Below are positions 1 to 38,617 of a stretch of DNA of 42,285 nt, one piece after another. The notes beneath the pieces were generated by a model. That model searched no databases, had not been told where the DNA came from, and saw only the letters and a list, made by a program, of their open reading frames with translations. This DNA is from a virus. Made by a program: the position numbers and the translations under genes. Position 1 is the first letter of the stretch; every line of letters starts with the position of its first letter. Location: the IMG/VR virus record IMGVR_UViG_3300045988_122987. The stretch is one strand, 5' to 3'.

Positions 1-99
1 ACATAAGTGCAATATGAACGATTAGTATTTATGCCGCTTTGGTATCTATTGATATACTAAATTTATATCCGCTCGGCTGTGTTCGAGTCCGCGGCACCA
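1..99. repeat. Left copy of a 99-bp direct repeat, identical to 42187-42285. It is either an assembly overlap of a circular genome or a phage direct terminal repeat.
   Basis: Positions 1-99 match the last 99 bases of the window exactly. Position 100 (g) follows the repeat. The right copy sits immediately after a terminator. Confidence 0.9.
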
Positions 100-11596: not shown

Positions 11597-12067
11597 ATGG
11601 CAGAGGTAAAAAAAGCAGTCAAAAAAGCTGTTAAAAATTCCGGTAAAAAATCCACCCTGAAAGCGGGTAAAAAAACCACGTCGGAAACACTCAGTCCGGC
11701 GCAGGAGAAATTCTGCCTGGAATACCGCAAGCATGAGGGTAACGGCACTGCTGCAGCCATAGCTGCCGGGTACAGTGAGAGGACCGCCGCGCAGCAGGCT
11801 ACAAGGCTGTTAAGAAATGTTAACATTCTGAAGCGCATAAAAGAGCTGGCAGATGACGCTATCAGAAAGCAGATTATCGGGCTGGATAAACGCGCTCTGG
11901 TGCTCAGTAAAATTGCCGAAGATGACGCTGCTGATGTGCAGGCCAGAATCAGGGCGATTGACGTTCTGAACAAAATGGATGGCGTGTATGTTTTCAAGAC
12001 TGAAATCAAAGTAAGTGGTAACATCGGTGTAAGACTTAAACGGCGCAAGGAAGGTGCTAACGGATGA
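11597..12067 (+). CDS. terS: Terminase small subunit, 156 aa. The start is moved from 11567 to this ATG with a strong SD.
   Basis: The Terminase_2-type HTH block is LSPAQEKFCLEYRKHEGNGTAAAIAAGYSERTAAQQATRLLRN. The SD AAAGGAGGTG lies 8 nt upstream. Confidence 0.8.
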   Translation: MAEVKKAVKKAVKNSGKKSTLKAGKKTTSETLSPAQEKFCLEYRKHEGNGTAAAIAAGYSERTAAQQATRLLRNVNILKRIKELADDAIRKQIIGLDKRALVLSKIAEDDAADVQARIRAIDVLNKMDGVYVFKTEIKVSGNIGVRLKRRKEGANG

Positions 12068-18254: not shown

Positions 18255-18845
18255 ATGAACAACATTGAAATCTGCAACCTTGCGCTTGGCCGTATCGGCG
18301 TAGACGAAATCAACCGCATGGATGAGGCAAGCCAGCCTGCGAGAATCTGTACACGTTATTTCAATTTTACCCGTCAGAACGTATTGCGCCGCTTTCCTTG
18401 GACGTTCGCAACAAAACGTGTGCAGCTGGCACTGCTTAATGAAACGGCACCTGATTATAAATACGTCTATCAATATCCTTCTGATGCTCTGGCCATACGC
18501 CTTATGTACAATGATAGCTTTGTTGGCCTGCCTAAGGATAACTACTTCCGCATTATGAACGGTAACGGCGGACGCAAGATATACAGTAATATCTCTAACG
18601 CCTACGTGGAATATACTGCAGACGTAAAGGACAGCGAAACATTCGACAGCCAATTCATTGAAGCCTTCAGCTGGAAGCTGGCGGCGGAGATGGCATTCGC
18701 TTTGACCGGTAATATGAATCTTGCGACAAATGCTATCCAGGCATACAATGCTTACTTTACGGAAGCAGCTGGCGAGGATGCTGCAGAAGACAATCAGGAA
18801 GAAGCTGTACAGGATAGACTGGCCAACGCCAGATGGGAGGGCTGA
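18255..18845 (+). CDS. Tail tubular protein A, T7 gp11-like, 196 aa.
   Basis: The length is the same as T7 gp11. The N-terminal region NLALGRIG...ARICTRYFNFTRQNVLRRFPWTF aligns by eye with T7 ...ILASIGE...ARRILNKINRQIQSRGWTF. Confidence 0.6.
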   Translation: MNNIEICNLALGRIGVDEINRMDEASQPARICTRYFNFTRQNVLRRFPWTFATKRVQLALLNETAPDYKYVYQYPSDALAIRLMYNDSFVGLPKDNYFRIMNGNGGRKIYSNISNAYVEYTADVKDSETFDSQFIEAFSWKLAAEMAFALTGNMNLATNAIQAYNAYFTEAAGEDAAEDNQEEAVQDRLANARWEG

Positions 18846-18847
18846 CA

Positions 18848-21154: not shown

Positions 21155-21155
21155 T

Positions 21156-21638
21156 ATGGCGGAATATACTTTTGGTCGTCCGTCGGATGAAGATATTGAA
21201 TACATAGCTGCACATCTGCGGCAGGATAACAGGCAGGAGCTGGCGGCGTTGTATGGCGCTGGGCATGAGCTGGATGTTTTAAAAAGAAGCGTCAGATACA
21301 GCGAACTGATTGGCTGCTTTTATATTGACGGCGTGCCTGCAGCTATCTATGGAGTAAGAAGCCCGGCTGCAATATGTTCCGTAAAGTGCGTATGGCTGCT
21401 CATGACCGACGAAACATTGAAGCATAGGCTAGTAGTAGGGCGATATACCAAACGCTTTCTGAGGGCGATTGTGGCGGCCTATGGGCCTATGTCCAATAAG
21501 GTTGATGCTGGGAACGCAGAAATCCTGCGCTGGCTCAGATGGCTTGGCGCTGAGATATCGGAGCCGGTGCAATGCGGAATCTACAATCTGCCGCACAGGG
21601 AATTTTATTTTGACGAAAGAATTTTAAAGGAGGGATAG
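21156..21638 (+). CDS. Hypothetical protein of 160 aa in the position of T7 gp13. The start is adjusted.
   Basis: The SD GGGAGGA lies 6 nt upstream of the ATG at 21156. Confidence 0.5.
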   Translation: MAEYTFGRPSDEDIEYIAAHLRQDNRQELAALYGAGHELDVLKRSVRYSELIGCFYIDGVPAAIYGVRSPAAICSVKCVWLLMTDETLKHRLVVGRYTKRFLRAIVAAYGPMSNKVDAGNAEILRWLRWLGAEISEPVQCGIYNLPHREFYFDERILKEG

Positions 21639-21639
21639 C

Positions 21640-22293
21640 ATGGGCGTAGGAGTAATGATTGGTGCAACTCTCTTGGGCGGTTATCTGCAGGGACGTGCAG
21701 CACGTCAGCAGGCCAACGCGCAGGCGGCGCAGGCTCGGGCAAATGCTGATATCGCCTATAACAATGCGCAGAAGCTGCAGGAGCAGGCCGAGAAGCAGGC
21801 GCAGAACAATGAAATCAACGAGGAAAACAAACGCCGCAGACTGCTGCAGCTGCAGGGGCAGCAGAGAGCCAACATCGGCGCGGCCGGAATCACGGCAAGC
21901 GGCAGTGCACTGGCGGCGATGGCAGACAGCCAGTTTAACCAGGAGCAGGAGCTTGCCTTTGAAAGATACAATGCGCGTCAGCAGGTAGATAATATCTTCC
22001 AGCAGAGTACAGACAATGTGAACCAGGGCGATATCTATGCGTCGAGCGCTAGGGCATACCGCAAGGCCGGCAAGCGTGCTATGATGAACAGTATGCTGCA
22101 GGCAGGGTTGAGCGTGGCGGCTAATCTTTACACGGCCAAAAGCATGGGAGCATTGAAAAGCTCAGCCGGTAAAAGCGTAGGGCTGCAAAACTACAGTGTA
22201 CCCGGCTACACAGAAATGAAGGGACTGCCTGCTCATACCGGTGGTGGCATATCAAGCTACAGTAATGATGGCTGGGCAAAAGCAAAATGGTAA
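21640..22293 (+). CDS. Internal virion protein, T7 gp14-like, 217 aa.
   Basis: The N-terminus MGVGVMIGATLLGGYLQGRAARQQANAQAAQA is a hydrophobic segment followed by a Q/A-rich region, the same arrangement as the T7 gp14 N-terminus. The SD AAGGAGGG precedes the ATG. Confidence 0.55.
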   Translation: MGVGVMIGATLLGGYLQGRAARQQANAQAAQARANADIAYNNAQKLQEQAEKQAQNNEINEENKRRRLLQLQGQQRANIGAAGITASGSALAAMADSQFNQEQELAFERYNARQQVDNIFQQSTDNVNQGDIYASSARAYRKAGKRAMMNSMLQAGLSVAANLYTAKSMGALKSSAGKSVGLQNYSVPGYTEMKGLPAHTGGGISSYSNDGWAKAKW

Positions 22294-22426: not shown

Positions 22427-22459
22427 GTGCTTTTTGCGTATATAGGAAAGGAGCAGAAT

Positions 22460-24562
22460 ATGGCAGTAATTGATGTTTACGAGAACCAGGCAAAGCTAGG
22501 TACGCCTACAAGCCAGACGAGCGGTGTGCATCCTGATATGGGCGGGCAGATGGCGCTGGCAAGGGCAAATGCAAATCTTACCAATACGATGGTAGAGGGA
22601 GGACAGAAGCTCTATGAGCAAATAGCCATTGCGGACGTGATGAAGGCTAACAATGATTACAATATGCAGATGAGCAGGCTGCAGAATGAGCTGCTGCAGA
22701 ACAAGGAAGAAAATGCCAGGGATAACCTTACCAAGTACGAAAAAGGGCGCAAGAAGATTATCAATGGCATTATGCAAAAAGGACCGTCTACGTTGCGCGG
22801 CGTTCTGGGAAGCAAAGCCTTTTACAATACTATTGAGCGTGACTGGACCGGCCAGCGTGCCCAGATGGAACGTTATACCATGGGTGAGATGGAGAAGTAC
22901 CAGGATACGCAGCTTAACAATCAATACAAATTAGCTTTGAAGGACGTAGCTGTAAACTGGCACAACAATAATGATCTGGACGCTGTTATGCGCCGCGGCG
23001 ATTTTATGACTGCAGCAAGGTATGCCAATTATGGCCAGGAAAAGATTACTGAAGCAAGCAACAAATGGAAGGCTGCGGTAGCAGAGACAGCAGCGCAGGC
23101 TGCTATCAATTCAGACAGCAGCGAAGGATGGACGCGTGGCGGTGAGATACTGCAGGCCTACGGTTATCTTATGGACCCGCAGAAACGTATCCAATACGAT
23201 AAGATTATCAGCGCGAGGGAGAAAAGCAATAATCAGCTTAATACCTTTGCCGGCATCTATGCCAAGTATGGCAGTGATATAAACGGCGGTGTGCAGGCGC
23301 TCTTGTCTACGCAGACCGGTACGGCAGATATCGCCAAAGGTTTGGCATTTGCACAGGGAGAGGAAGGCAAGGCTTGGGGCAGCAATCAGTGCGCTAACTT
23401 TGTGAAAAAATATATTCAGACGGCTGGCGGTGATTATGACATCACCAGCAGCTTGGCTGATGGTACCTACCTTAACGCAGAACGTAAAGGGCTGACGTTT
23501 AATGACCGTAACCAATTAAGGGACGGAGATATCGTCTATTGGCAGGTAGATGGCAGCAAGTACGCTACGAGCGACAACCCGGATGATGTGCATTCTGACA
23601 CTAAGGCCTATAAGGGTATTACCCATGTCGGTATATACAATGCCAAGACCGGCAAGGTTATCCAGAGTGGTGAGCATGGAGTGAGTGAGCTGGCGCTGGA
23701 TGCTGCCGGATATCATACGGTAGGCTACAGCCATATCGGCGGCAGAGCTATGGACGCAACTGAGCGCGAAGAATTAAAAAAAGGTTATATGCAGTACGCG
23801 CTGCAGCAGGTGCAGCAGAAGCGTACAAGCACTAACCTTATGGTGGAAAGAGCTTCGGATGAAATGTTTGCTGCCTACAATAATGGCGTACGTGACCCGG
23901 CGTATTTTGAAAACATGGCCAAACAGATAGCAGGCAACGATTATAGCGCTTATAATACTTTGCACGCTGTAGCAAAGAGCTTTACATCTCCGGGTGTACA
24001 CAAATTAACTGTAGGTGAGGCTTTGGAAATAGAGGATGCCATAGACAAGGGCGGACTGTCGCAGGATGAGCTGATCCAGAAGTTGTCTGATGCAGGCTGC
24101 AGCACGGAAACTATTATGAAATACGTGCATATGAATAAGCAGGCGGCGAAAGCTGCAGCTAGGGGCGAAGGCAAGGCATCATTTGACTGGGACAGCGTTA
24201 TGGAAGCCTTTTACAGTAAGATGGGCGGAAGAAACAAGGTGCCGGAAGCGTGGCGTCCGGGATTGAAGCGGTACGCCAAAAGAGCAATAAACGAATACAT
24301 AGCTAAAGAAAACCGCACGCCTACAGTAGACTGGGTGATGGATATCATGGAACAGGGACTGGTTAAGGGTGTCGGCGGCGTTACGGTAGAAGGTGAGCAC
24401 TTCTGGAACAGTGATATATCATACAATATGGCACAACTTGGCAACCATGATATCTATCATATCAGTAATGCAGATGATGGTTACGTCAATGTATGGTTTT
24501 ATGGCAATGCTCAGCCGGTGCGCATGAGCAAGGCAGCGTTTAAGCAGACGATGGGAGAGTAA
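22460..24562 (+). CDS. Internal virion/ejection protein with a CHAP peptidoglycan-hydrolase domain, 700 aa, in the T7 gp15 position. The start is adjusted from 22427.
   Basis: The CHAP-like catalytic motifs are GSNQCANFV (Cys codon at 23390-23392) and GITHVGIY (His codon at 23624-23626). The SD GGAAAGGAG precedes the ATG at 22460. Confidence 0.6.
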   Translation: MAVIDVYENQAKLGTPTSQTSGVHPDMGGQMALARANANLTNTMVEGGQKLYEQIAIADVMKANNDYNMQMSRLQNELLQNKEENARDNLTKYEKGRKKIINGIMQKGPSTLRGVLGSKAFYNTIERDWTGQRAQMERYTMGEMEKYQDTQLNNQYKLALKDVAVNWHNNNDLDAVMRRGDFMTAARYANYGQEKITEASNKWKAAVAETAAQAAINSDSSEGWTRGGEILQAYGYLMDPQKRIQYDKIISAREKSNNQLNTFAGIYAKYGSDINGGVQALLSTQTGTADIAKGLAFAQGEEGKAWGSNQCANFVKKYIQTAGGDYDITSSLADGTYLNAERKGLTFNDRNQLRDGDIVYWQVDGSKYATSDNPDDVHSDTKAYKGITHVGIYNAKTGKVIQSGEHGVSELALDAAGYHTVGYSHIGGRAMDATEREELKKGYMQYALQQVQQKRTSTNLMVERASDEMFAAYNNGVRDPAYFENMAKQIAGNDYSAYNTLHAVAKSFTSPGVHKLTVGEALEIEDAIDKGGLSQDELIQKLSDAGCSTETIMKYVHMNKQAAKAAARGEGKASFDWDSVMEAFYSKMGGRNKVPEAWRPGLKRYAKRAINEYIAKENRTPTVDWVMDIMEQGLVKGVGGVTVEGEHFWNSDISYNMAQLGNHDIYHISNADDGYVNVWFYGNAQPVRMSKAAFKQTMGE

Positions 24563-24566
24563 CATT

Positions 24567-27500
24567 ATGGGAACTTTTAATTTCAGTAATATGCAAGGTG
24601 GCCAACAGCAGGAAACTCAGAACATTCCGCGTGAATTTCGTCCTGCTGTTGAGCAGGCGAAAACGGAACCGGTCGGCTCTTACGGTAACAACAAAACAGG
24701 CTTCTGGGACGAGGTGAAGAATTTTTTCTCCGGTGCAGATGTTGATACCAGTGCCGGCTTTATTGATGAAACAGGAACATGGAACAATGGCACTAAACAG
24801 GAGCTTGCTAAATACTATCCTACACAAAAGAGTGCGGAAGAACTCGAAAAGGACAGATTAGGCTCTTTGTGGGACAGAGCGTATAAAAAATATCATTACA
24901 GCAAAGACGATGTACTGCTTGAAGCAAAGAAAATCAGCGCGGCCACAAACATCCCTGAAAATGCTATCCTGGCTAACGCTGATAATCTGGCCAACGCACG
25001 CAATGTATATAATTATCAGCAGAAGGCTATGGACCCGCAGGAAGTGTTTAAGGCCTACCCTGAGCTGAGCGAGCTGGCCAAGCTGAGTGATACCGACGCT
25101 GCTATTGCTCTGCATAACTTAAAGAACGTGCGCCAGACTCAGGGCATTATTGAAGCAGCTAAGACCGGCTGGGAGCTTGATAACCTGATGAGTGAGCGCG
25201 GCCGTATGGGCAACGGCAAAGAGCTGACGGATGCCGACATTGCACGTTTGGGAGAAATTGAAAAAGCACAGAAAAATTCTAAGGAACTGCCGGGACTTTT
25301 TGAGGACCCGATGAGTGCTATTGTAGGCGGCACAGTGCAGAGTGGCAAGATGATGCTGCGTAATGCTCTTAATGGCCAGAAGATGGGCGTATATGGCGCT
25401 GGCTTCGGCGCGCTTCTCGGCGGTATTGCCGGCGGCGGTGCAACGCTGGGTGCCGGTACTGCTGCAGGCGCGACCGCAGGTGCCAAGATTGGTTATAGTG
25501 TCGGCAGCCGTATCGGTATGGCGCAGGATATGTATGACGAAATCGCCGGCAACAACTACCTTGATTATAAAGGCTATAAGGATAAGCAGGGCAGGCAGCT
25601 GCTGACAGATAACCAGGCGCGCAGCTATGCTGCTGTAGCAGCAGCACTGGAAACCGGCATTGAATTTGCTAACGCAGATAAAATCCTGAACGTCATCAAA
25701 GGCGGTGCAGGTGCGCAGAGCATCAAAGAGATTATCAGCAGTGCCAAAGACAGCACGGAGCTGCAGAGCCTGCTTGCCGCATATCTGCGTGACAGTGCCA
25801 AGAACATCGGAACAGTGGCCATCTCTGAGAGCGCGGAAGAAGGCGTGCAGGAGATGAGCAACAGAATTATTTCTGATATTGCTGCAGCAAACAATCCCGG
25901 CGGTGATATCCCGACATATACGGCAAAGGACGTTATCGTTGGCGGCCTAGAAGCAAGCTGGCAGGCATTGCCTGCGTCTATTGGCTTTGGCGCTGGCGCA
26001 CATGGAGCAAGCACTGTATCGTTTATGCGTCGTGCATCCGCGGCGCTGCAGCTGAAAAGTGAAGAGCAGAAAGCTAACCTGCGTGATGCTAACGGCATAT
26101 CTATGCTGAGAAGTCTTGCTGAGGATATCAAAAATAATGCTTTGTTTAAAAAAGCTCCGGAAGTATATAACGAGGTACTGAATAATCAGCTCAAAGGCAC
26201 GGAGCTGGAAACTATTAACATAGATACAGAGTACGTTCTTAATCAGCAGGGCGGCTATGAGCTTTTGAAATCTGCAGCAAAGGCAGCAGGCATAGGCGAA
26301 CAGTATCTTAAAGACATCATCGATACTAAGGCAGACTTGAAAATCAGTACAGCAGATTATGTATCTAAGCTGCTGCCGACTGAAATCGGTGCTCATCTGG
26401 AAGACTACATCACATTCAGCGATATCAGCGAATGCCTGGCACGCAACAGAGAATATGCCGGCAGGATGCGCCGCGAGATGGACCGCATATTGGCATATGA
26501 GAACCGCCAGCGTGAAGATGCTTTGAATACCTACCTTGACAATAACTTCCATACTCCGGAAACCCGTGAGATAGCAGAGGCAGTATTGCGCCGCTTCCCG
26601 GATAATCCTAAGGAAGGCGTAAAGGAAATCAGAAAATCGCTGCAGGCCAAGATTGACGAGCCGCTTAATCAGATTATCGAAGAGCTGGAAAAGGGTATGG
26701 GTAACGGCGTAGCTGTAGTAGAAATCCCGGAATATGATAATCAGATGCGTGGCCGTGGTATCAAGGTAAGCAATAATGACCCTTGGTATCAACGCTACTA
26801 TAAAGAGAATAAGCATAAGCCCTCTAAGATGGAGCTGCGTGAGCTGGCGCGTGAGATTTGGACCGGCCACAACGAGTATGGACTCTTTGGCTGGGAAAAC
26901 CGCACTCCGGAAGATAACCAATGGTATGAGAATAACAAGGCATCCATGGAAGCAACGGAAGAAGCCATCCGCAGATTGGATGCGCTGACGCCTGCTCTGG
27001 AAGAAATAGATCCGGGCGAACTCTCTATTACTGAAGGCCTGAGCGAAGAAGGCTTTGAGGTATATCGTAAGCTGCGTGGCAAGCTGGAAGGCGCTGAAAG
27101 CAAAGAAGTGCGGCAGGCAGCACAGAAGAGGGCTATCCTTGCCGCACGAATGGCAGACCGTATGGCTGAGCTGCATAGACAGGTTGGCCATACTAAATAC
27201 ACTGCGCTTGATTATGCGCGTAGTATTGGGCTTATCAGAAGTGAAAGTGAAGCTGCGGAGCAGAAGTTTAATCAGGCCGCTATGCGTAAGGAAAATAAGC
27301 GTTATGTATTAAATGAAGATGGTAACGTCGATTGGGGAAATGTCAATGAATTTGTTGCCGATGATGGTACAACAATAAAAAAAGCACCCGTAAGGATGCA
27401 GATTGGATATCAGGTTGGCGCCGGTGATGCTGGAGCAGGTTATATTCATATAAAGAATAGACATACTGGATTTATAGAAGGGAAAGGATATAAGAATGTA

Positions 27501-30500
27501 AGTGATATTGTATATGATGTTTTGGAAAATGCAGATTTTGCTGTCAAATCTATATCTGCAGATGGACGGGAAAGGATAGCTTTAATAAGAGATTTAACTC
27601 CACATACAAGCATATTATTAGCTCTTGATTATACTGAGGAGGGCAATGATAGCTATTACACTATAGTTAGCATTATGCCGCAGTCAAAGAAGCAAACAAA
27701 AGAAGCAAAAGAAAAAGCATTATCTTTTGATGGGAGCGTTCGCCCATCGCCCGCTACCGGCAGCGGTGCCTTTTTCACTCCAACCGAAACAAAGGCCGGA
27801 ATCGAAGGAGGTTCGTTCGCTGGCAAAGATAATGCTTTTGATACTGTAAGTTTATCAGATGCTGACCAGTATGTCAATGAGTACACATACGACCAGAAAG
27901 CATGGCATGGCACGCCTTACAATTTTGAAAGGTTTGATATTGGCAAAATCGGCGATGGCGTTGGTGACCAGGTACATGGCTGGGGCCTGTACTTTGCTAA
28001 GGATAGAAAAATATCAGAGGCATACAAGGAAGTGCTGGGGGCTGACGCTGGCGCAGTAATTGTAGATGGGGTTACGTACAAAATTGATGAGGAGGGAGAT
28101 TGGGCAACAGCAGCAGGACAGAAGCTCATTGACAATGATCCGTTAGAATTTGTACTGGATACGTTTGACGCAATGACCGGAAACAAGAATAAGGAAAGGG
28201 CAATAAAAAGCTTAAAGGAAAGAATTGCTGGAACCAAAAGAACGGCTAATACAGAAAGCTATATTGCTAAACTAGAAGAAGCGATAAACATTATTGAAAA
28301 AGCTGACGTGAAGTACGAAAATACTTCACGCCTGCTGAAAGTGGAGGTTCCAGAAAACGATGTATTGCTAGACGAACAAAAGACTTTCATTAATCAGAAC
28401 AAAAATGTACAAGCACTTTTGAAAAATACTATAGAATCTTTGGATGATGCGCAGTCAATGAAGTTCTGGGAAAATCTGCTGAACTTTAAATTAAGAGCTT
28501 TTGATAATGCTGGCAAGGTTCAGTTTAAGATTGATGGCTTCAATAAATTAGCAGATGGCATTGGTAAGATTTTAGAGAGCAATTCTAATACATTTGGCTA
28601 TAGAACGCTTGCAAGAAGCTTGGAAAGATACGGATATAGCAAAGAAGAAATCGAAAAGCTAAAGTCAGATGGCGAATATCGTAATCAGGAACAACAGAAG
28701 CTCAGAAGTCAGGCTGCTGCTTTAGAAGAAGAATTAGAGCGTGCTAAAGCAGAAGATGCTGCTGCAAAAGAGGAGGTTATCAATCAGGCAAAAGCTGATA
28801 TTTCCGGTACTTTGGGGGGCATGTTTTCCGGCAACAAGATTTACGATGCTCTGGCGAAGGCTATGGGCGAAGAGGATTATAATTGGCGTGGCGCGTCTGA
28901 GCTGCTTAATGAGCACGGAATTAAAGGCATAGCTTACGAAGGTATGAAAGATGGCCGCTGCTTTGTCGTCTTCGATGATAAAGCCGTAGATATCATAGAG
29001 CGCTACAACCAATCTGCAGGCGAACGTGCTATGACGGCCAACATGGAGAAGCTGAAGGAAGCAAAAGAAATGCTGGCCAAAGATGCGGATATGGAAACCA
29101 TCTACAAAAAGACCGGCTGGCATCGTGGCGCTGATGGTAAATGGCGTTTTGAGATACCGGATAATTTGGATGAGATAGATGCTGCTAAATTTCCGGAAGA
29201 AGGATATGCTATACCGTTAGGAGAGATATATAATAATCCTAAACTGTATGAAGCTTATCCGTGGCTAGCTGACGTCATGGTTCAGTCTGAAGCTATGGAA
29301 GAGCAGACCTTGGGAGTAGCTGCTGGTGAAGGCTACATTGGCATAAACAGCAATCTGCTAGGAGACGGCATCAAGCAGGAGATAACCATAAACGGCATAA
29401 AGTATAAACGCATAGTAAGCAAGGATGGGGCTAAGGCCGGTAAGTTCTTTTCTCATGGTGATGAGTTCGTAGAGTATGCGCTTAATCATGGTATTAAAAA
29501 CAATACGTTTGACAAACAGGCCGCAGTGAATAGTTTGAAGGAGCTGATACAAGAAAAAGAATCTGTTATAGAAAAACTTAAAAGCAAAAATAATAATGGG
29601 CAGTTTAATAAAGGCATATTGGACAGACAAAAAGAATTAAACAAGATAAGAGGAGCGGCAGAGTTTGTTGGCAGAGCGGATATTGATTTTAATGAAGTCA
29701 AAAAAGCTGACAGAGATGTAGCAGCAGCTCACAAGAATTTAGCTGAAACTCTCATCCATGAAATCCAGCATATCATCCAGAATGCAGAAGGCTTTGCTGG
29801 CGGCGGTACTCCGGCCAGAGTCAATGAACAGATGAAGCGTCAGCTGCAGAAGTACGATGAAGAAATAGAACGCCTACATCCAAAAGGCAAAGAATATGTT
29901 ACGGCTATGCTCGAATATGACATAGCTGACTTTGAACATGACACCGGTGAAATTTCCGATGAGGATTTTACTGATATCAAAAATAAGGTTAAAGAGCTGG
30001 AAGACCAGATACCTGAAGAAAAAGTAAAGCGCCTGCAGGAAATCAAGGAGCTGCAGACAGATTTGCAATGGCAAGCTGAAGATGAAAACTCTGGCGATTA
30101 TGAAAAATACTTCCGTCTGCATGGAGAGCAGGAATCCAGAGTAGCATCAATGAAAGCACGGCTCTATACCATGGGTGCAAGCCAGGAAAGAATTGATAAC
30201 GAAGTGCTGAACGCTATCGATAATCCTATCATTGTATTTGGCGGCAGAAGCTACAGCATGGACTCTGATCAGCGCGGCTTATGGCAGCTCAAAGGCCAGA
30301 CTGCCTTTAAAACTACCGGCGAGAAGGTTATTTCTCTGTTTAAGGCTGCAGACCAGTCGACATTTATGCATGAGATGGCTCATATCTATCTGCACGATAT
30401 GCTGGCGCTGGCAGAATTACCGAATGCTCCGAAGCAGCTGCTGGATGACGTGGCCACGATTAACCGGTGGGCTGCATGGAACGATACGCAATTTGTCAAA

Positions 30501-33500
30501 GAGTACAAAGGCACTGCTATGGAGAGTGAATTTAAAAAGCTCAATGAGCAGATGAAAACTGCAGTTGCCAAAGGCTCCGTTGAAATCGAAGGCAAGAAAA
30601 TGACCTTGGAACAGATGCAGCGGCTCTGGATGCAGGAACGCTTTGCCCGTGGCTTTGAAAATTATCTGAAGAGCGGTGACGCACCTACAGAAGCAACGCG
30701 CAGTATCTTCCGGCGCTTCAAGCAGTGGCTGACTAAAATCTATCGTGCAATCAGCCAGATTGGCGGTGCTCCGTCCAAAGAGGTTAAAGCAGTTATGGAC
30801 CGCATGATTGCCAGTGAAGATGAAATCGACATTGCTATGAGGAAAAAAGGCGTAGATGATTTTGCCGAAAGCGGCGGCATGGATTATCTGGAAGGAAGCG
30901 CGGGGGACGTATATCGCCGTATGGTAGAGCGCGCCAAGGCTGATGCTGAGGAAAAGGTGCTCAAAATAGCACTGAAGGACGTCAAGAAAGATTATCGGCA
31001 GCAGGAAAAGGAACTGTTTGCGCGTGAAGAAGCGGAATACCGAGAGAAGCTGGCCGCAGAACCGGTGTTTATTATCCAAGAACATATCAAGAACAACCCT
31101 GATATCAGCAGGTCTGATATTTGCGAAAGACTTGGCATGGACGTGGAAGATTATGTCAAGCAGCTTAAAGAGTATGGCAGCTTGGATGCTGCAGTAAAAG
31201 CTCATATGGAAGAGTTTAAGGAGGGGATAGATAACAGCGGCATAGATGCTAAGTATTTCCGCGAACGCGCGGAAGAAGTCGTGCAGGAAAGCAAATACCG
31301 TAAGCTGGCCACGGCGATGGAGCTGGAAGCGTTTGAGCGCATTGCCAAAAAGCAGCGTAACCTGACTACCCAAATAGAGGCCGACGGCAAGAATGATGCT
31401 GCAGAAAAAGGCGTCATTAAGACGGTAGACAAGATGACCAGGCAGAGCAAGCAGATAGAAGAGCTTACTGCAGAAACAAAGGGACTGAAGCAGGATAAAC
31501 GTGAACTGCTTGCTAATGTGCGTGGCCTGCGTGATGCAGCACTCAGTCATTACAAGGACTATGTGCAATTCGTTGAGATGAAGCTGGAGGTTATGCCTAT
31601 TGAGGACGCCAACAACTACCAGATGTGGCGCAGAAAGTCGGCGCAGGCGCAGTACAATTCTGAGCAATCTCTTGTAAAAGGCAACTGGGATAAGGCCGTC
31701 AAATACAAACAGGCTCAGCTGATCTATGACATGTTTGCTGACAGAGCTGTCCGCAACGCCAAGCAGATCAAGAAGATTGAAGATGGCCTGAAGCGTAAGC
31801 AGCAGACTATCAGCAAGGCGAAGAACATATCTGCAGATGAACGTTATGCGTATAATCATCTTATGTATGTGTTTGGCTTTTCTGACGCAGACGCGCCGGT
31901 ACCGCCGCATTATGAGGGCATCATGGAAGTGCTGATGAAAGCAGATGCTACAAGGGAAGAAGGCGGCCTGATGCTGGAGTCTCCGTTCTTCGGACCGGAT
32001 GGCCAGACAAATCTCCCTGAATGGTTCCTGCAGGCGGCGATGAACAGCAATAAACGTAAAGCAGGGCATAAGGATTTGAGCAATATGCAGGTTGATTTGG
32101 TGGCACAGGTTATGCATATCATCTATAAGCGCGGTATGGATAATATGAAGCTGGCCACGATAAAAACCAAGGACGGCAGAACCCTGACTGTTGACGAAGC
32201 AGTTGCTGAGATTGAAGGGCAAGTGCGCCAGCGTATGATAGAACTCGCTAACGCTGACCCGACTGGTGCCAATAAAAACAGATGGCAGGATGACGCTGCA
32301 AACTTTATAGACCAGGCTGACAAGTTACTGATTAAGCCGGAGGTGGAGCTGAAAAAGCTGGGTGATGTGGCGCTGCGGTATATCTACAACCCGCTGAAGG
32401 AAGCTGCAGACAAAGAGCTGAAGATGGCCGTGAATATGCAGAACAAATTAAAAGGACTGTTTGATGCTTACTCTCCCGAGGAACTGGCAGATATGCGTAA
32501 CAAACGCCGCTATAAATTTGGCTCATCGGTTATTACCAAGGAGCAGGCGATTATGATTGCGCTTAACTGGGGCACTGAAACGAACCAGCAGCGCGTTCTG
32601 GACGGCTATCACGTCAACGTAGCGCAGGTTAAAAATGTGCTGCAGTATCTGGATGAACGCGACTGGAACCTCGTCAACAGTATCTGGAAACTCTACGATA
32701 TACATTGGGACCAGATAAGAGAGATTGAAGCACGCATGACCGGTGCCGTGCTACAGAAGCAGGAAGCCAAAGGCTTTGTTGTTGTCGGGCAGGACAGAAA
32801 AATCTATACCTTGGATGGCGGCTACTTCCCTATTAAATACGACCTGCGGGATTTGCGTACGCAGGAGCAGGCTGATGCTGCACAGCAATCGGCAATGAGC
32901 AATATTGCAATGTCTTTAGGCAAGGGCTTTCTGAAAGAACGTACTCAGCATAAGGTTGAGCGCAGGCTGGATCTTAGGTTTGAAGTTATCAGCGGCAGCA
33001 TTACTGACGTTATCCATTTGGTAGCATTCCGTGAACCGGTACGCGACGTGCGCCGCATTGTACTCAATGAGAATTTCAAAAACCTTGTCTACAATTACCT
33101 CGGCCAGAACGCTTACAAAAATCTGAAAAAGTGGACCAGCGATTGTTGGGCGGAAGAACCGATACCGAGGACGGCCTACGAAAAGGGCATGGCCAAGCTG
33201 CGTAACGCTCAGACAATGGGAACCATGGGCTTCAGGGTAACAACAGCGCTGCTGAATATCGCTAACGTTCCGAGCGTAGCTCATTATATGGGCGCGGCTG
33301 AGCTGCTGCACTCGCTAAAAAAGTTTTACAGTGCCCCGCGTCGATATACGGACTTTGTTTTCCAACGCTCTGTATTCATGGCGGAACGTGCGGAAACCAT
33401 GGATGCCAGCATCCATGATGCGCTGAAAGGGCCTAATATCTTGGAAGGTATTCTGGGCATTGGTAAGGCTGGCGAGGTTATCAAAAACAACGCGTTTAAG

Positions 33501-34328
33501 ATGATAACCTGGACAGATCTGATGCTGGCATTGCCGCTTTGGCAGCACGAATACGAAAAGACCTACAATGCAGAGGTGGATGCAGGACGTTCGCCGCAGC
33601 AGGCGAGGGAAGCAGGCGTAAATGCCGGCGATGCTGCAGTGCGCTGGTGCTTCGGCAGTGGCCGTACGGTAGATAAAGCTGCTATTCAACGTAAGGGCAG
33701 CGAGCTGATGAAGCAGCTTACTATGTACTACAGCTATAACTCTACAGTATATAATGCTCTCAATTATAAATTATGGGAAGCAAAGGTAGGCTATAAGAAG
33801 GCTGTAGCGGCAAGCGCAAAGAATAAAAGCATGGCTCTGATGAAAGCTGTAGCTCATGCTGGCGATGCGCTGCTGATGTGGGTACTGCTGCCGGCAGTTA
33901 TCTCGGCGCTGCTGCGTGCTGGCGCAAGCGGTGACGATGATGACTGGAAGATTGAAAAGCTTATCAAGAGCATGGGACAGGAATCTCTTACAGGCATCGT
34001 CGGTGGCATACCAGTGCTGCGCGATGCTGTCCCTTACTTTATGGCAAAGGTGTTTGATGAGCATCAATTTGCTCCAAAAATTCCTATTCAGAATACCATT
34101 GAGCAGACAAACAGAGTTATCCAAAGCGCTGTTAGTGACAAGAAAACTATCAGCGATACGCTGCGGGAGATGGGCAAGCTGACAAGCCAGGTTACCGGAG
34201 CACCCAGCACGTTGATGGATAGCTTTACAACAACGCTGCAGTATCTGGAAAGTGGCTTCGATGAAAGCGTTGCGGATTATCTGCGCGCCTTGATCTTTGA
34301 TAAAAAGCTGAAGAAAAATCAAAAATAG
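24567..34328 (+). CDS. Giant polyvalent internal-virion/ejection protein, 3253 aa, in the T7 gp16 position.
   Basis: It is a single uninterrupted ORF. A glycine-zipper hydrophobic segment GVYGAGFGALLGGIAGGGATLGAGTAAGATAG lies at about 25383-25520. Two HExxH motifs are present, LIHEIQHII (about 29755) and FMHEMAHIYLHD (about 30369). Long coiled-coil stretches and a C-terminal hydrophobic segment LLMWVLLPAVISALL are also present. Several internal AT-rich islands occur. Confidence 0.75.
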   Translation: MGTFNFSNMQGGQQQETQNIPREFRPAVEQAKTEPVGSYGNNKTGFWDEVKNFFSGADVDTSAGFIDETGTWNNGTKQELAKYYPTQKSAEELEKDRLGSLWDRAYKKYHYSKDDVLLEAKKISAATNIPENAILANADNLANARNVYNYQQKAMDPQEVFKAYPELSELAKLSDTDAAIALHNLKNVRQTQGIIEAAKTGWELDNLMSERGRMGNGKELTDADIARLGEIEKAQKNSKELPGLFEDPMSAIVGGTVQSGKMMLRNALNGQKMGVYGAGFGALLGGIAGGGATLGAGTAAGATAGAKIGYSVGSRIGMAQDMYDEIAGNNYLDYKGYKDKQGRQLLTDNQARSYAAVAAALETGIEFANADKILNVIKGGAGAQSIKEIISSAKDSTELQSLLAAYLRDSAKNIGTVAISESAEEGVQEMSNRIISDIAAANNPGGDIPTYTAKDVIVGGLEASWQALPASIGFGAGAHGASTVSFMRRASAALQLKSEEQKANLRDANGISMLRSLAEDIKNNALFKKAPEVYNEVLNNQLKGTELETINIDTEYVLNQQGGYELLKSAAKAAGIGEQYLKDIIDTKADLKISTADYVSKLLPTEIGAHLEDYITFSDISECLARNREYAGRMRREMDRILAYENRQREDALNTYLDNNFHTPETREIAEAVLRRFPDNPKEGVKEIRKSLQAKIDEPLNQIIEELEKGMGNGVAVVEIPEYDNQMRGRGIKVSNNDPWYQRYYKENKHKPSKMELRELAREIWTGHNEYGLFGWENRTPEDNQWYENNKASMEATEEAIRRLDALTPALEEIDPGELSITEGLSEEGFEVYRKLRGKLEGAESKEVRQAAQKRAILAARMADRMAELHRQVGHTKYTALDYARSIGLIRSESEAAEQKFNQAAMRKENKRYVLNEDGNVDWGNVNEFVADDGTTIKKAPVRMQIGYQVGAGDAGAGYIHIKNRHTGFIEGKGYKNVSDIVYDVLENADFAVKSISADGRERIALIRDLTPHTSILLALDYTEEGNDSYYTIVSIMPQSKKQTKEAKEKALSFDGSVRPSPATGSGAFFTPTETKAGIEGGSFAGKDNAFDTVSLSDADQYVNEYTYDQKAWHGTPYNFERFDIGKIGDGVGDQVHGWGLYFAKDRKISEAYKEVLGADAGAVIVDGVTYKIDEEGDWATAAGQKLIDNDPLEFVLDTFDAMTGNKNKERAIKSLKERIAGTKRTANTESYIAKLEEAINIIEKADVKYENTSRLLKVEVPENDVLLDEQKTFINQNKNVQALLKNTIESLDDAQSMKFWENLLNFKLRAFDNAGKVQFKIDGFNKLADGIGKILESNSNTFGYRTLARSLERYGYSKEEIEKLKSDGEYRNQEQQKLRSQAAALEEELERAKAEDAAAKEEVINQAKADISGTLGGMFSGNKIYDALAKAMGEEDYNWRGASELLNEHGIKGIAYEGMKDGRCFVVFDDKAVDIIERYNQSAGERAMTANMEKLKEAKEMLAKDADMETIYKKTGWHRGADGKWRFEIPDNLDEIDAAKFPEEGYAIPLGEIYNNPKLYEAYPWLADVMVQSEAMEEQTLGVAAGEGYIGINSNLLGDGIKQEITINGIKYKRIVSKDGAKAGKFFSHGDEFVEYALNHGIKNNTFDKQAAVNSLKELIQEKESVIEKLKSKNNNGQFNKGILDRQKELNKIRGAAEFVGRADIDFNEVKKADRDVAAAHKNLAETLIHEIQHIIQNAEGFAGGGTPARVNEQMKRQLQKYDEEIERLHPKGKEYVTAMLEYDIADFEHDTGEISDEDFTDIKNKVKELEDQIPEEKVKRLQEIKELQTDLQWQAEDENSGDYEKYFRLHGEQESRVASMKARLYTMGASQERIDNEVLNAIDNPIIVFGGRSYSMDSDQRGLWQLKGQTAFKTTGEKVISLFKAADQSTFMHEMAHIYLHDMLALAELPNAPKQLLDDVATINRWAAWNDTQFVKEYKGTAMESEFKKLNEQMKTAVAKGSVEIEGKKMTLEQMQRLWMQERFARGFENYLKSGDAPTEATRSIFRRFKQWLTKIYRAISQIGGAPSKEVKAVMDRMIASEDEIDIAMRKKGVDDFAESGGMDYLEGSAGDVYRRMVERAKADAEEKVLKIALKDVKKDYRQQEKELFAREEAEYREKLAAEPVFIIQEHIKNNPDISRSDICERLGMDVEDYVKQLKEYGSLDAAVKAHMEEFKEGIDNSGIDAKYFRERAEEVVQESKYRKLATAMELEAFERIAKKQRNLTTQIEADGKNDAAEKGVIKTVDKMTRQSKQIEELTAETKGLKQDKRELLANVRGLRDAALSHYKDYVQFVEMKLEVMPIEDANNYQMWRRKSAQAQYNSEQSLVKGNWDKAVKYKQAQLIYDMFADRAVRNAKQIKKIEDGLKRKQQTISKAKNISADERYAYNHLMYVFGFSDADAPVPPHYEGIMEVLMKADATREEGGLMLESPFFGPDGQTNLPEWFLQAAMNSNKRKAGHKDLSNMQVDLVAQVMHIIYKRGMDNMKLATIKTKDGRTLTVDEAVAEIEGQVRQRMIELANADPTGANKNRWQDDAANFIDQADKLLIKPEVELKKLGDVALRYIYNPLKEAADKELKMAVNMQNKLKGLFDAYSPEELADMRNKRRYKFGSSVITKEQAIMIALNWGTETNQQRVLDGYHVNVAQVKNVLQYLDERDWNLVNSIWKLYDIHWDQIREIEARMTGAVLQKQEAKGFVVVGQDRKIYTLDGGYFPIKYDLRDLRTQEQADAAQQSAMSNIAMSLGKGFLKERTQHKVERRLDLRFEVISGSITDVIHLVAFREPVRDVRRIVLNENFKNLVYNYLGQNAYKNLKKWTSDCWAEEPIPRTAYEKGMAKLRNAQTMGTMGFRVTTALLNIANVPSVAHYMGAAELLHSLKKFYSAPRRYTDFVFQRSVFMAERAETMDASIHDALKGPNILEGILGIGKAGEVIKNNAFKMITWTDLMLALPLWQHEYEKTYNAEVDAGRSPQQAREAGVNAGDAAVRWCFGSGRTVDKAAIQRKGSELMKQLTMYYSYNSTVYNALNYKLWEAKVGYKKAVAASAKNKSMALMKAVAHAGDALLMWVLLPAVISALLRAGASGDDDDWKIEKLIKSMGQESLTGIVGGIPVLRDAVPYFMAKVFDEHQFAPKIPIQNTIEQTNRVIQSAVSDKKTISDTLREMGKLTSQVTGAPSTLMDSFTTTLQYLESGFDESVADYLRALIFDKKLKKNQK

Positions 34329-34394: not shown

Positions 34395-34426
34395 AAGCCC
34401 TGGCTGATGCCGGGGCTTTTGCTTTA
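34395..34426 (+). terminator. Leader hairpin with U-tract downstream of late promoter copy 3.
   Basis: The stem is AGCCCUGGC-UGAU-GCCGGGGCU, followed by UUUGCUUUAU. Confidence 0.5.
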
Positions 34427-34442
34427 TGGAAAGGAGCAGAAG

Positions 34443-36050
34443 ATGACAGTACAGAAAGACGTTACTAAAAACATCTATGTTGGTAACGGCTCAACAAGGA
34501 CATTTCCGGTTACCTTTGAGTGTCCTGCAGAGCATCCGGAATATATTAAGGTATATCTGATGCAGGATGATGGAACGGCACTGGCCACAAGCGATTATCA
34601 GCTGGACATGGATGCAAGGCAGATAACATATCCTAGTAGCGGAACAGCGCTGCCGGAAGGCAAGAAACTGGTTATCATGCGCGAGCTGCCGTTGCAGCAA
34701 ATGATGAACCTTGTAAACAACGGGCCGTACTTCGCGGAAGATATTGAAACTGCGTTTGATGAATGCGTAATGGCTATGCAGCAGATAGCCGAAAAACTTA
34801 ACCGCAGTATTATCATGAGTGTTGATATAGATGGTGACACTTTTGTCAATGAAGTGCCGTTCGAGGCCGGCAAATCTTTCCGAATTGCGGATGATGGCAA
34901 GAGCATTGTTTTAACGGAAGACCCAGCGAGAGTAATTGGCGGGGCAAAGCAATTACTCGCTGAAACAACTACCAAGGCAGAGGAAACTGCGGCTAATACT
35001 GAAACGACCAAAACAAATACAGAAAAAGCCAAGCAATATGCAGAAGCTGCTAGCGATTCTAAAGATTTAGCTAAGCGGTGGGCAGAAGCTACCGACAGTC
35101 CCGACTATACAACATCTAAGTCTGCTAAGACATGGGCAGGAGAAGCTAAGGATGCAAGGGATGAAGCGAAAGATACTGCTGTGAATTTAGGAAATCCTGT
35201 TGTAAATATTACAGAGGATAAAGGTACAGTTACAGTTAGCAAAAGCGATGGCAGCAGTAGTAACTTTACTACGTTCCCTAAGTTTGTAGAGATTCCTGCA
35301 AATGCAGATTTAAATGATTATAAGCAGGAAGGCTTTTATATATGTAAGACAAATAGGGACGCTGCAACATTACAAAACTGCCCTATGAAAATAGGTTTTC
35401 TGATGGAAGTCTATACTACAACTTATGAATATGACGGTGCAACAGATAGTTGGATGCACCAACGTATTATCACCTTCAGTGATGCACTGATATATAGCCG
35501 TGCATATGGTACATGGGATGGTGGGAAATGGTATTCATGGCAGAGTACCCCTGCTATTGGCACAATTCTCCCCTTTGCTGGTGCTAATAGTATACCGGAA
35601 GGCTACTTAGTTTGTGATGGTTCTGCTATCAGTCGCACAACTTATGCACAGCTTTATGCTGTTATTGGTAACACATATGGAGCCGGTGACGGCAGTACAA
35701 CCTTTAATGTCCCTAACCTTAAAGGACGATATATTGAAGGACAAAATAATGCTGCTGTTGGTAAGGTGTGGGAAGCAGGACTGCCGAATATTACAGGTAG
35801 ATTATGTTCTCAAATGTTCAGCAATAAGAATGATATAGAAGGAGGGTTAAAGGATAATTTAGACTATTGGACCGGAGCTTTAAATACTCATGTGTGGAGC
35901 ACCATCACTACAGGTTATAATAGCTATTCCGGGGGTAATAGCTATGGAGGTCAAGTAAGGTTCGACGCATCCAAATCTAACGCCATCTACGGCAAGGCTG
36001 GCACTGTTCAGCCCCCTGCCGTAACCATGCGCTACATCATTAAATATTAA
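34443..36050 (+). CDS. Tail fiber protein, 535 aa, with a T7 gp17-like N-terminal adaptor, a coiled-coil shaft and a C-terminal tail-collar receptor-binding domain. The start is adjusted from 34407.
   Basis: The N-terminus IYVGNGSTRTFPVTFECPAEHPEYIKVYL matches the gp17 N-domain pattern YQLDGSNRDFNIPFEYL. The collar motif is PFAGANSIPEGYLVCDGSAISRTTYAQLYAVIGNTYGAGDGSTTFNVPNLKGRYIEG. The SD GGAAAGGAG precedes the ATG. Confidence 0.7.
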   Translation: MTVQKDVTKNIYVGNGSTRTFPVTFECPAEHPEYIKVYLMQDDGTALATSDYQLDMDARQITYPSSGTALPEGKKLVIMRELPLQQMMNLVNNGPYFAEDIETAFDECVMAMQQIAEKLNRSIIMSVDIDGDTFVNEVPFEAGKSFRIADDGKSIVLTEDPARVIGGAKQLLAETTTKAEETAANTETTKTNTEKAKQYAEAASDSKDLAKRWAEATDSPDYTTSKSAKTWAGEAKDARDEAKDTAVNLGNPVVNITEDKGTVTVSKSDGSSSNFTTFPKFVEIPANADLNDYKQEGFYICKTNRDAATLQNCPMKIGFLMEVYTTTYEYDGATDSWMHQRIITFSDALIYSRAYGTWDGGKWYSWQSTPAIGTILPFAGANSIPEGYLVCDGSAISRTTYAQLYAVIGNTYGAGDGSTTFNVPNLKGRYIEGQNNAAVGKVWEAGLPNITGRLCSQMFSNKNDIEGGLKDNLDYWTGALNTHVWSTITTGYNSYSGGNSYGGQVRFDASKSNAIYGKAGTVQPPAVTMRYIIKY

Positions 36051-37666: not shown

Positions 37667-38281
37667 ATGATTGGAGATTTATCTAAACGCTATGAGTCCA
37701 ACGGCGACGCCGGCTGCATTAGCAATGGCTATGGCGACGCCGGAGGAAAATCCTACGGCATGTATCAGCTGTCCAGCAACATGGGAGTTGTTGATGACTA
37801 CATCAGATGGCTGCGTAGAAATGGCTATTGGTTTGCAGAGAATTTGACAGAGCATCCGGTTGGTAGTCTTGCTTTTGATGAGGCCTGGCGCTGGCTTGCC
37901 TATAGTAACAACAAAGCTGACTTTGAAAAAAGCCAGCATGACTATATCTGCGATGCCTATTATAAGCCGGCCGTAGCTGCTCTCAAGCATAACAACTACA
38001 ACATCGAAAAGCATCATGAGGTTATGAAGGACGTTGTTTGGAGCCGCGCTGTACAATATGGCGTCGGCAACATTGGTGAGATGTTTGCGGAAGCCTGCGA
38101 GAAGCTGGGATATCCTAACCTTAGTTATGTTGATGACAGCAGTTTTGATGCTGATATGATCAAGGCGATTTACCTGAAGGTCTGCAGCACGTCTGCGTGG
38201 ACCAACGGCAGTCCTGCTTTAAGACAAGGGTTGTATAGTCGCTTTGAAAGAGAATGCGAAGAAGCACTGGAAAGAATTTAA
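37667..38281 (+). CDS. Putative endolysin, 204 aa, possibly a GH108-like muramidase.
   Basis: The N-terminal segment ESNGDAGCISNGYGDAGGKSYGMYQL resembles the GH108 pattern EGGyvnd..DpGGaTkyGI. It is positioned after the holin-like genes. Confidence 0.35.
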   Translation: MIGDLSKRYESNGDAGCISNGYGDAGGKSYGMYQLSSNMGVVDDYIRWLRRNGYWFAENLTEHPVGSLAFDEAWRWLAYSNNKADFEKSQHDYICDAYYKPAVAALKHNNYNIEKHHEVMKDVVWSRAVQYGVGNIGEMFAEACEKLGYPNLSYVDDSSFDADMIKAIYLKVCSTSAWTNGSPALRQGLYSRFERECEEALERI

Positions 38282-38326
38282 GGCTCATGCTTTAAATATA
38301 GTCACTGTACAATAGGAGGAAACATC

Positions 38327-38617
38327 ATGCTTGGATTTGTAGATACTATTGAATTAATGAACAGCAATAATTTTAAAGAACGTTTTATCGCAGAATATGT
38401 TCAGACGAAAATCCGTTACGATGCATTGCATAAAATGCTTGTTAAATATAAGGCTGGAACTTTATCGTTTACTCCGCAATGTAGCTATGAGTTGCTCACG
38501 GAACAGGCAGGATATATGGGTCAATATTTGCACTGCCTTGAAGTGCGTGCTGAAATCGAAGGCGTAAAATTGCCTGACAGTGAGCTTGTTTTTAGCAAGG
38601 TGTGTAAAAATGAGTAA
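38327..38617 (+). CDS. Hypothetical protein, 96 aa.
   Basis: The SD AGGAGGA precedes the ATG. Confidence 0.55.
   Translation: MLGFVDTIELMNSNNFKERFIAEYVQTKIRYDALHKMLVKYKAGTLSFTPQCSYELLTEQAGYMGQYLHCLEVRAEIEGVKLPDSELVFSKVCKNE

Follow-up and report, generated by a model that had tools for sequence, protein, structure and literature searches.

A 3,253-residue protein from a gut prophage is a probable polyvalent ejection protein with exchangeable enzyme-like cassettes

Overall architecture

The 42,285-nucleotide IMG/VR virus record IMGVR_UViG_3300045988_122987 (referred to here, at its full length, as the window) contains a giant open reading frame (ORF; 24567..34328 on the plus strand, with an ATG start, 3,253 codons and a stop) whose product is probably an ejection protein of the IVP-D type (IVP, internal virion protein) from a prophage of Phascolarctobacterium succinatutens, organised as a polyvalent protein that carries exchangeable enzyme-like cassettes. 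Conserved gene order, homology of the protein chassis, the presence of PolyVal-type domains and the exchange of cassettes between relatives support this reading, as they do the interpretation as an ejection or effector-delivery polyvalent protein offered in a preliminary description of the same DNA.

The ORF accounts for 9,762 of the 42,285 nucleotides (23.1%) and has no internal stop. An intact orthologue of 3,290 residues lies at the same locus in the P. succinatutens metagenome-assembled genome (MAG) L009, on a 128-kb contig, and is 96% identical to the window protein outside one cassette. Several metagenomic proteins are also collinear with the giant protein across its length; together with the intact orthologue they show that the frame is not an artefact of assembly. 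It is confirmed as a real, single, intact gene in the window, in agreement with the earlier claim of one uninterrupted ORF covering 23% of the genome; no frameshift or sequencing error of the kind that the preliminary description had considered splits it, either here or in L009.

The domain map was assembled from Pfam, PHROGs, BLAST comparison with relatives and module-wise phmmer searches, with homologues collected by protein segment. Three cassettes, one PBECR3-like, one ART-PolyVal-like and one consisting of LPD23 with a HEIQH-containing domain, are inserted between the N-terminal region and a HEMAH-containing domain, which brings PBECR3-like, ART-PolyVal-like, LPD23 and two HExxH domains together in one frame of 3,253 residues. 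The remainder is, on sequence comparison, a chassis made of the N-terminal ∼905 residues, the invariant HEMAH domain and an ∼1,160-residue helical C-terminal module (C-module), and the same comparison identifies this chassis as common to the BPP-1/AF lineage and to thousands of metagenomic relatives.

LPD23 and the HExxH domains

The third cassette (D–F; residues 1486–1899, 29022..30263, plus strand) combines LPD23, a significant Pfam match (74 bits, cut-off 27; E-value 8 × 10−21), with a HEIQH zincin-like domain. The HEIQH helix follows LPD23, and between them lies an insert (E; residues 1599–1722, 124 residues, 29361..29732, plus strand) composed of a β-hairpin and helices and located inside the HEIQH domain. 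The Pfam family LPD23 is listed as being of elusive function. In all 54 of its 54 occurrences it is followed by HE(I/V/L)QH within 11–146 residues (median gap 30 residues), compared with a background of 19%. Since HExQH follows in every case, LPD23 probably does not stand alone but forms the N-terminal lobe of the zincin-like domain.

The next domain (G; residues 1900–2095, 30264..30851, plus strand) is a HEMAH zincin-like hub that opens the conserved C-terminal half of the protein and is the most widespread module, being found in 168 of 209 related proteins. Its HEMAH motif aligns with HESGH in Bbp10 and HELGH in AF gp16. HEIQH is located at residue 1731 (nucleotide 29757) and HEMAH at residue 1935 (nucleotide 30369), a spacing of 204 residues. 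Among homologues of 22–70% identity, His1731, Glu1732, His1735, Glu1741, Glu1854 and Glu1856 are invariant in the HEIQH domain, and His1935, Glu1936, His1939, Glu2024 and Glu2031 are invariant in the HEMAH domain.

An AlphaFold2 model of residues 1480–2100 has a mean predicted local distance difference test (pLDDT) score of 85.5, with most of the HEIQH cassette above 85. In this model strands precede each of the long HExxH helices and invariant glutamates (Glu1854 and Glu1856; Glu2024 and Glu2031), candidates for the third ligand, are placed on later helices; a strand, a HExxH helix and a glutamate-bearing helix is the order of elements described for the zincin-like MPTase core by Iyer et al. 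(2017; PMC5512222). Neither HExxH domain is matched by Pfam MPTase-PolyVal, sequence and profile searches of the Protein Data Bank (PDB) with the whole protein and with the two HExxH modules returned nothing or only coiled-coil noise, and fold searches returned only helical-bundle noise and did not confirm a zincin fold. Both domains are therefore described as 'zincin-like' on the basis of motif conservation and modelled topology, without a fold match. Thus, of the two peptidase-like HExxH motifs about 200 residues apart that were noticed previously, the positions and the invariance are borne out, and a match to a zincin fold or profile was not found. A duplication relating the two domains was considered and rejected, as their similarity is confined to ∼22 residues around the motif (E-value 0.002).

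PBECR3-like and ART-PolyVal-like cassettes

The first cassette (B; residues 906–1108, 27282..27890, plus strand; GC content 39%, and 28% at third codon positions, GC3) is a PBECR3-like putative RNase. It matches Pfam PBECR3 with E-values of 0.0008–0.0015 (19–20 bits, cut-off 30), and hhalign in local mode, the mode also used for LPD22, aligned its GYIHIKNRH motif with DMRHIKNDH of a valid PBECR3 domain (E-value 0.003).

The second cassette (C; residues 1109–1485, 27891..29021, plus strand) contains an ART-PolyVal-like domain (residues ∼1109–1285), resembling ADP-ribosyltransferases of the H-Y-D type, and a tail that is helical and includes the string GRCFVVFDD. Its own match to Pfam ART-PolyVal (PF18760) reaches 17.7–23.2 bits against a cut-off of 31.2 and covers only profile positions 10–50. 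The assignment is strengthened by nine homologous segments that match PF18760 (best E-value 1 × 10−6), with Pfam matches among homologous segments being to PolyVal families only, and by a global-mode hhalign comparison of the module family with residues 721–880 of the relative P0035 (100%, E-value 4.8 × 10−40 over 151 columns), in which the ART-PolyVal domain is itself Pfam-valid (E-value 1.8 × 10−15). The residues conserved in this module include His1114 (AWHG), Tyr1142 (GLYFA) and an acidic VLLDEQK segment containing a candidate catalytic aspartate; the His and Tyr strands and VLLDE are invariant or more than 80% conserved in homologues of 25–45% identity.

The strings AWHGTPYNFERFD at residue 1112 and GWHRGADGKWRFEIPD at residue 1517 had been taken for repeated W-H-G...F-E motifs. 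Both are present, but treatment of AWHG...FERFD and GWHR...WRFEIPD as one repeat is rejected by hhalign (probability 1.6%), and the two occur in unrelated domains, one in strand 1 of the ART-like domain and the other in the LPD23 hairpin. A relationship of a different kind was observed between a sub-domain of ∼100 residues in the ART-like domain (residues 1161–1262, 28047–28352) and the insert at residues 1599–1722 of the HEIQH domain (hhalign 86%, E-value 4.6 × 10−6). The sub-domain consists of a β-hairpin with the pattern xIxhxGxxYK and helices with AIxSLKExI, and the insert that is common to the two domains could be a regulatory or latch element.

Cassette exchange and composition

Relatives with 75–98% identity exchange whole cassettes at fixed junctions. 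In L009, L005, P0010 and P0011 cassette B alone is replaced, by an unrelated cassette of 226 residues; in P0009, LPD3 substitutes for cassette D–F; and in P0001 and P0004 only the insert at residues 1599–1722 is exchanged. Comparison with related phages, which the preliminary description had proposed, thus locates the variable segments in the cassettes and in insert E. The zone occupied by the cassettes (27282–30263) has a GC content of 41.6% and a GC3 of 38%, whereas the flanking chassis has a GC content of 49.3% and a GC3 of 51–56%, and the restriction of this sharp trough to the cassette zone indicates that the cassettes were acquired horizontally.

At the same position Bbp10 has its N-terminal region, one PBECR1 domain and then directly the HExxH hub, and AF gp16 has LPD23 with HEVQH. 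The additional ∼1,000–1,200 residues of the giant protein relative to these two are accounted for by its three cassettes. An exhaustive phmmer search with residues 905–2100 matched 17,297 representative clusters at E ≤ 1 × 10−3 and 374 at E ≤ 1 × 10−30. The best representatives have a median length of 2,880 residues, 60 of 146 have at least 3,000, the longest has 7,242 and about 75 finish with a full C-module. With such a median, the size of the giant protein is ordinary for its class: the earlier figure of 2.5 times T7 gp16 is correct as arithmetic (3,253/1,318), but the length is not exceptional beside the 2,050–2,200 residues of the BPP-1 and AF proteins and the 2,880 of the relatives. The reading as an expanded, multi-domain polyvalent protein gains support from the LPD23 match, the ART alignment and the swapped low-GC cassettes.

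A stand-alone gene of 947 residues (P0008; 10001–12844 of L003, a 217-kb bacterial contig) is composed of segments equivalent to window residues 794–1117, an LPD3 insert and window residues 1104–1509, with 93–97% identity. It adjoins PIN and DUF4325 genes and resolvases, outside any virion module, and may represent a piece of a polyvalent gene that a host island captured or retained as a remnant.

Chassis and relationship to T7 gp16

The C-module (residues 2096–3253, ∼1,160 residues, 30852..34325, plus strand) is the mostly α-helical part of the chassis and matches PHROG 9880, a family of unknown function, with an E-value of 4 × 10−134. A tblastn search with the C-terminal half of the protein matched 48 phage records. 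The C-terminal ∼1,300 residues are homologous to Bbp10 of BPP-1 and gp16 of AF, with E-values of ∼1 × 10−120 when the HEMAH domain and C-module are compared with them by hidden Markov model (HMM). The AlphaFold2 model of residues 2060–3253 is nearly all α-helical (pLDDT 71.9); long helices occur in both AlphaFold models, consistent with the extensive coiled coils reported previously. The C-module model has 77 matches in BFVD at E ≤ 1 × 10−3, all of them C-terminal pieces of long phage proteins with varied PolyVal-type domains (ART, MuF_C, nuclease, acetyltransferase and LPDs), and this diversity suggests that the C-module is a common carrier under many different loads.

The ORF occupies the slot of T7 gp16 (IVP-D): it follows tail tubular A, the nozzle, two small internal virion proteins (IVPs) and a 711-residue protein, and precedes the tail fibre. 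AF and BPP-1 share this gene order, with gp16 (2,213 residues) and bbp10 (2,052 residues) as the equivalents. Hardies et al. (2016; PMC4819975) used HMM–HMM matching to show homologues of IVP-D (T7 gp16) across podovirus lineages, and Bbp10 is among those listed. The T7 gp16 position claimed in the preliminary description is therefore upheld by synteny and by homology to Bbp10 and AF gp16, without a direct match to T7 gp16. That direct link was not reproduced, and membership of the gp16 family is argued from gene order, from helical character and from the assignment published for Bbp10.

The N-terminal chassis region (residues 1–905, 24567..27281, plus strand) is 96–98% identical in close relatives and 25–37% identical in distant ones. 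Its sub-segments N1, N2 and N3 are matched in 43, 61 and 99 of the 209 related proteins, respectively, and no close relative of the N-terminal half was found in the collection of isolated phages. It contains a weakly supported LPD22-like segment (residues 112–197, 24900..25157, plus strand; Pfam E-value 0.24), a family that is also matched by two homologous segments (best E-value 3.5 × 10−4). LPD22 is significant in AF gp16 and Bbp10 according to Pfam, and hhalign of the window segment against the LPD22 of these proteins gives an E-value of 6.5 × 10−4.

The chassis has two hydrophobic segments of the kind described previously. The 'glycine zipper', earlier placed at residues 270–320, was found at residues 270–312 (25374..25502, plus strand) as a Gly/Ala-rich hydrophobic segment (55% Gly + Ala; Kyte–Doolittle value for a 19-residue window, KD19, of 1.25) that is a candidate membrane-active element. 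It is kept in 33 homologues (median Gly + Ala content 45%), and an analogous segment is present in AF gp16. The C-terminal hydrophobic helix ('...LLPAVISALL'; residues 3089–3123, 33831..33935, plus strand; KD19 1.98), also noted earlier, is a candidate transmembrane segment with a median Kyte–Doolittle value of 1.55 across 54 homologues, and its PAV(I/L) core is common to AF gp16 and Bbp10.

Comparison with known systems

Polyvalent proteins and the LPD, ART-PolyVal, PBECR and MPTase families were defined by Iyer, Burroughs, Anand, de Souza & Aravind (2017, J Bacteriol; PMC5512222), who argued that such proteins are packaged and injected. The giant protein resembles them in being one very large polypeptide whose gene lies among those for virion proteins, in the mosaic domain content seen between relatives and in its LPD23 and LPD22-like, ART-PolyVal-type, PBECR-type and HExxH zincin-like domains. 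It differs in that its HExxH domains are unmatched by the Pfam MPTase-PolyVal family, its C-module is not a named Pfam domain and LPD23 is here always followed by HExQH (54 of 54).

Bbp10 and AF gp16 are among the closest known counterparts, with 24–25% identity over ∼1,300–1,500 residues and the same locus, gene order and chassis (an LPD22 N-terminal region, a HExxH hub, a C-module of ∼1,200 residues and the PAV(I/L) helix). They carry one cassette each (PBECR1 in Bbp10; LPD23 with HEVQH in AF gp16), in contrast to the three of the giant protein, and belong to phages of proteobacterial hosts rather than of a diderm Firmicute (Negativicutes). The likeness to T7 gp16 lies in the position after genes of the gp14 and gp15 type and before the tail fibre, in the large size and mostly α-helical character and in presumed encapsidation and ejection; unlike T7 gp16, the giant protein lacks an N-terminal lytic transglycosylase domain, is 2.5 times longer and carries enzyme cassettes, and there is no detectable sequence or profile similarity between the two.

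A 2026 preprint (bioRxiv 10.64898/2026.04.10.717836) reports the 2,811-residue polyvalent protein gp47 of the Stx podovirus phi24B in virions by proteomics and proposes that it is an ejection protein. The N4 virion RNA polymerase gp50, which is packaged and injected, and the P1 Dar proteins, a further precedent for packaging and injection, are both cited in PMC5512222. Like gp47 and gp50, the giant protein is a giant podovirus protein with cytoplasm-directed domains and a metallopeptidase-type domain; the cargo is different, since gp47 carries LPD5, LPD1, LPD38 and MuF-C, and gp50 an RNA polymerase. A tblastn search found no similarity of the giant protein to Stx or N4 phages. For a single-subunit RNA polymerase module, no such family was matched in Pfam or PHROGs, and HMM and hhalign comparisons with N4 gp50 were negative.

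Functional implications

The giant protein would most likely share the capsid core with the proteins of the gp14 and gp15 positions, a packaging for which phi24B gp47 provides a precedent, and would be ejected through the nozzle at infection. The Gly/Ala-rich and C-terminal hydrophobic segments may serve membrane insertion, with the chassis helping to form or extend a trans-envelope conduit, and the RNase-like, ART and zincin-like cassettes would be carried into the cell along with the chassis and, at the very onset of infection, act on targets in the host. In the account of Hardies et al. (2016; PMC4819975), IVPs host cytoplasm-destined domains. One or both of the zincin-like domains may also cut the polyprotein into working parts.

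Several observations weigh against this interpretation. In the giant protein itself the ART-PolyVal, PBECR3 and LPD22 matches are all under the Pfam gathering scores, and both hydrophobic segments are only moderately hydrophobic. Comparison of the C-module and the HExxH modules with T7 gp16, epsilon15 gp17 and N4 gp50 by hmmsearch and hhalign gave no significant match, with a weak in-register match around the HELVH motif of N4 gp50 (E-value 0.005), and no protein named gp16 is present among the top 50 BFVD hits. Finally, the division of the gene in the near-identical phage contig L005, discussed below, suggests that the protein may not need to be made as one polypeptide.

Alternatively, the targets of the zincin-like domains, and perhaps of other cassettes, might be phage proteins or the cell envelope, through autoprocessing or maturation of the giant protein in the capsid or through cleavage of peptidoglycan peptides during penetration, making the protein a self-processing component of an ejectosome rather than a carrier of domains with cytoplasmic targets. 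This alternative, the main rival, is considered unlikely. A housekeeping role would fit the HEMAH domain, which is part of the invariant chassis, occurs even in Bbp10 and is more widespread than any other module; autoproteolysis is discussed as a likely MPTase role by Iyer et al. (PMC5512222), and peptidoglycan degradation by the metallopeptidase has been proposed for phi24B (bioRxiv 10.64898/2026.04.10.717836). Wall-degrading activity is also otherwise unaccounted for, as the 711-residue neighbour showed neither an SLT nor a CHAP domain. However, there is no obvious part for ART-PolyVal and PBECR-type domains to play in assembly or in penetration of the wall, and rapid cassette swaps and foreign GC content are expected of conflict effectors and not of assembly functions. 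Self-processing thus explains the HEMAH domain better than it does the cassettes, and it can partly coexist with the delivery of cassettes by an ejection protein. A purely structural role, in which the enzyme-like motifs are relics and the inserts merely add length or bulk to a long helical ejection or 'ruler' protein, would agree with the largely α-helical character, with the predominance of domain matches below Pfam cut-offs and with the helical-bundle noise that was all the fold searches yielded, but it is very improbable. The HExxH motifs, the downstream glutamates, the His and Tyr strands of the ART-like domain and VLLDE are invariant or more than 80% conserved at 25–45% identity, indicating selection on catalytic residues, and the coupling of LPD23 to HExQH in 54 of 54 cases also counts against this reading.

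The gene arrangement in L005, in which the locus is divided into two overlapping genes of 1,174 and 2,074 residues, could be taken to mean that the single ORF of the window is an artefact in which adjacent genes were fused by a sequencing or assembly error. The split in L005 arises from a frameshift caused by five additional nucleotides, as the repeat (ATGGC)x2 that lies inside the AWHG codons of the ART module in the window (27902–27911, plus strand) is expanded to (ATGGC)x3 in L005 (∼9855–9880), the window copy being intact. Given this cause, and given that uninterrupted frames are present in the window, in L009 and in the 60 of 146 representative relatives with at least 3,000 residues, a fusion artefact can scarcely be entertained, and the delivery of swappable cassettes by an IVP-D-type protein is preferred over all of these alternatives. 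The break in L005 falls exactly at a cassette junction and could itself stem from faulty assembly, mark a dead prophage or lie at a site prone to slippage. Another relative, P0003, is reported on two contigs.

Junction motif

The motif [FY][NDSHEQ]Q[ASTQEKP][AVMG] occurs four times in the giant protein, compared with 0.41 copies expected by shuffling; in 107 relatives the enrichment is modest (0.92 copies per protein against 0.36 expected). Three of the four copies lie exactly on mosaic junctions, each at a cassette start and summarized by the shorter pattern [FY]-[N/D]-Q-x-A: FNQAA (residues 901–905, nucleotides 27267–27281), YDQKA (residues 1108–1112, nucleotides 27888–27902) and YNQSA (residues 1480–1484, nucleotides 29004–29018). 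A strand of the form hVVFxG/D closes at least two modules, with FVVFDD or IIVFGG just ahead of two of the junctions. The junction motifs could be recognized by the built-in zincin-like domains, which would cleave the ejected protein there and set the RNase-like and ART cassettes free in the cell; at the DNA level they could also be microhomologies for cassette exchange between prophages. The fuller proposal, that the giant protein is a self-cleaving, cassette-shuffling polyprotein with punctuation in its sequence, is speculative and rather improbable.

Significance

The class to which the giant protein is assigned is already described and well populated, through the polyvalent proteins of Iyer et al. 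(2017), the cytoplasm-destined domains in internal virion proteins of Hardies et al. (2016) and the virion-packaged example of phi24B, and the protein reveals no new kind of system. The new points are small ones: the map of chassis and cassettes with its break in GC content, the swapping of single cassettes between near-identical gut prophages, the coupling of LPD23 to HExQH, the related insert inside two different enzyme-like domains and the junction motif, with its modest enrichment where cassettes begin. The protein offers a clean example of a podovirus ejection protein as a probable delivery vehicle, with a defined insertion zone in a conserved chassis and cassettes swapped singly between prophages, otherwise 96–98% identical, of a bacterium common in the human gut. 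The P. succinatutens phage group is accordingly a natural experiment that allows the cassettes present to be related to the defence repertoires of the hosts, and the predicted injected effectors (ART, RNase-like and zincins) can be selected for biochemical testing. Annotation would also gain from treating LPD23 as the probable front half of a HExQH zincin-like domain and from using the HEMAH domain as a marker for where the conserved module of IVP-D type begins in the BPP-1 lineage.

Genome context

Genes of the window were annotated mainly with Pfam and PHROGs. Portal, capsid, nozzle and internal virion proteins are encoded upstream of the giant ORF and a tail fibre downstream, and the window includes an integrase; by its gene content the window is the genome of a temperate podovirus-type prophage of the BPP-1/epsilon15 lineage. 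The source names of the closest proteins and the MAG locus point to P. succinatutens, a gut diderm Firmicute (Negativicutes), as the host. The identified genes comprise a serine integrase (29–1582, minus strand), the large terminase (12064–13554), the portal (13796–15493), an epsilon15-type major capsid protein (16483–17490), tail tubular A (18255–18845), the nozzle (18833–21154), two small internal virion proteins on the plus strand, one of 170 residues (21126–21638, phrog_308) and one of 217 residues (21640–22293, T7_gp14 family), and the tail-collar fibre (34407–36050).

The 711-residue protein (22427–24562, plus strand) is in the position of gp15 (IVP-C) and has no family assignment. It had been labelled a CHAP-domain protein, a label without support from Pfam or PHROGs: no match to CHAP, NlpC or SLT was found in either database (Pfam at E ≤ 0.1), and PDB searches returned no match or only coiled-coil noise. 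The NlpC/P60-like string GDIVYW...THVGIY is visible and is the sole sign of such a domain. A relationship to the AF gp15 'endolysin' was considered and dropped, as BLASTP showed no similarity.

Elsewhere in the window, a 534-residue protein in which an Mrr-type restriction endonuclease domain is weakly matched (1611–3215) adjoins the integrase, and a ParB-like protein of 452 residues (7330–8688) and a protein of the rolling-circle/replication-initiation type (10064–10888) are encoded ahead of the terminase. On the 3′ side of the tail fibre, L005 encodes a T6SS_VgrG3-like_C (lysozyme-like) protein and a protein of the 'Sequestin' family (19564–20514 of L005, equivalent to window ∼37667–38617), and window ORFs of 204 and 96 residues match these two genes in size and position.

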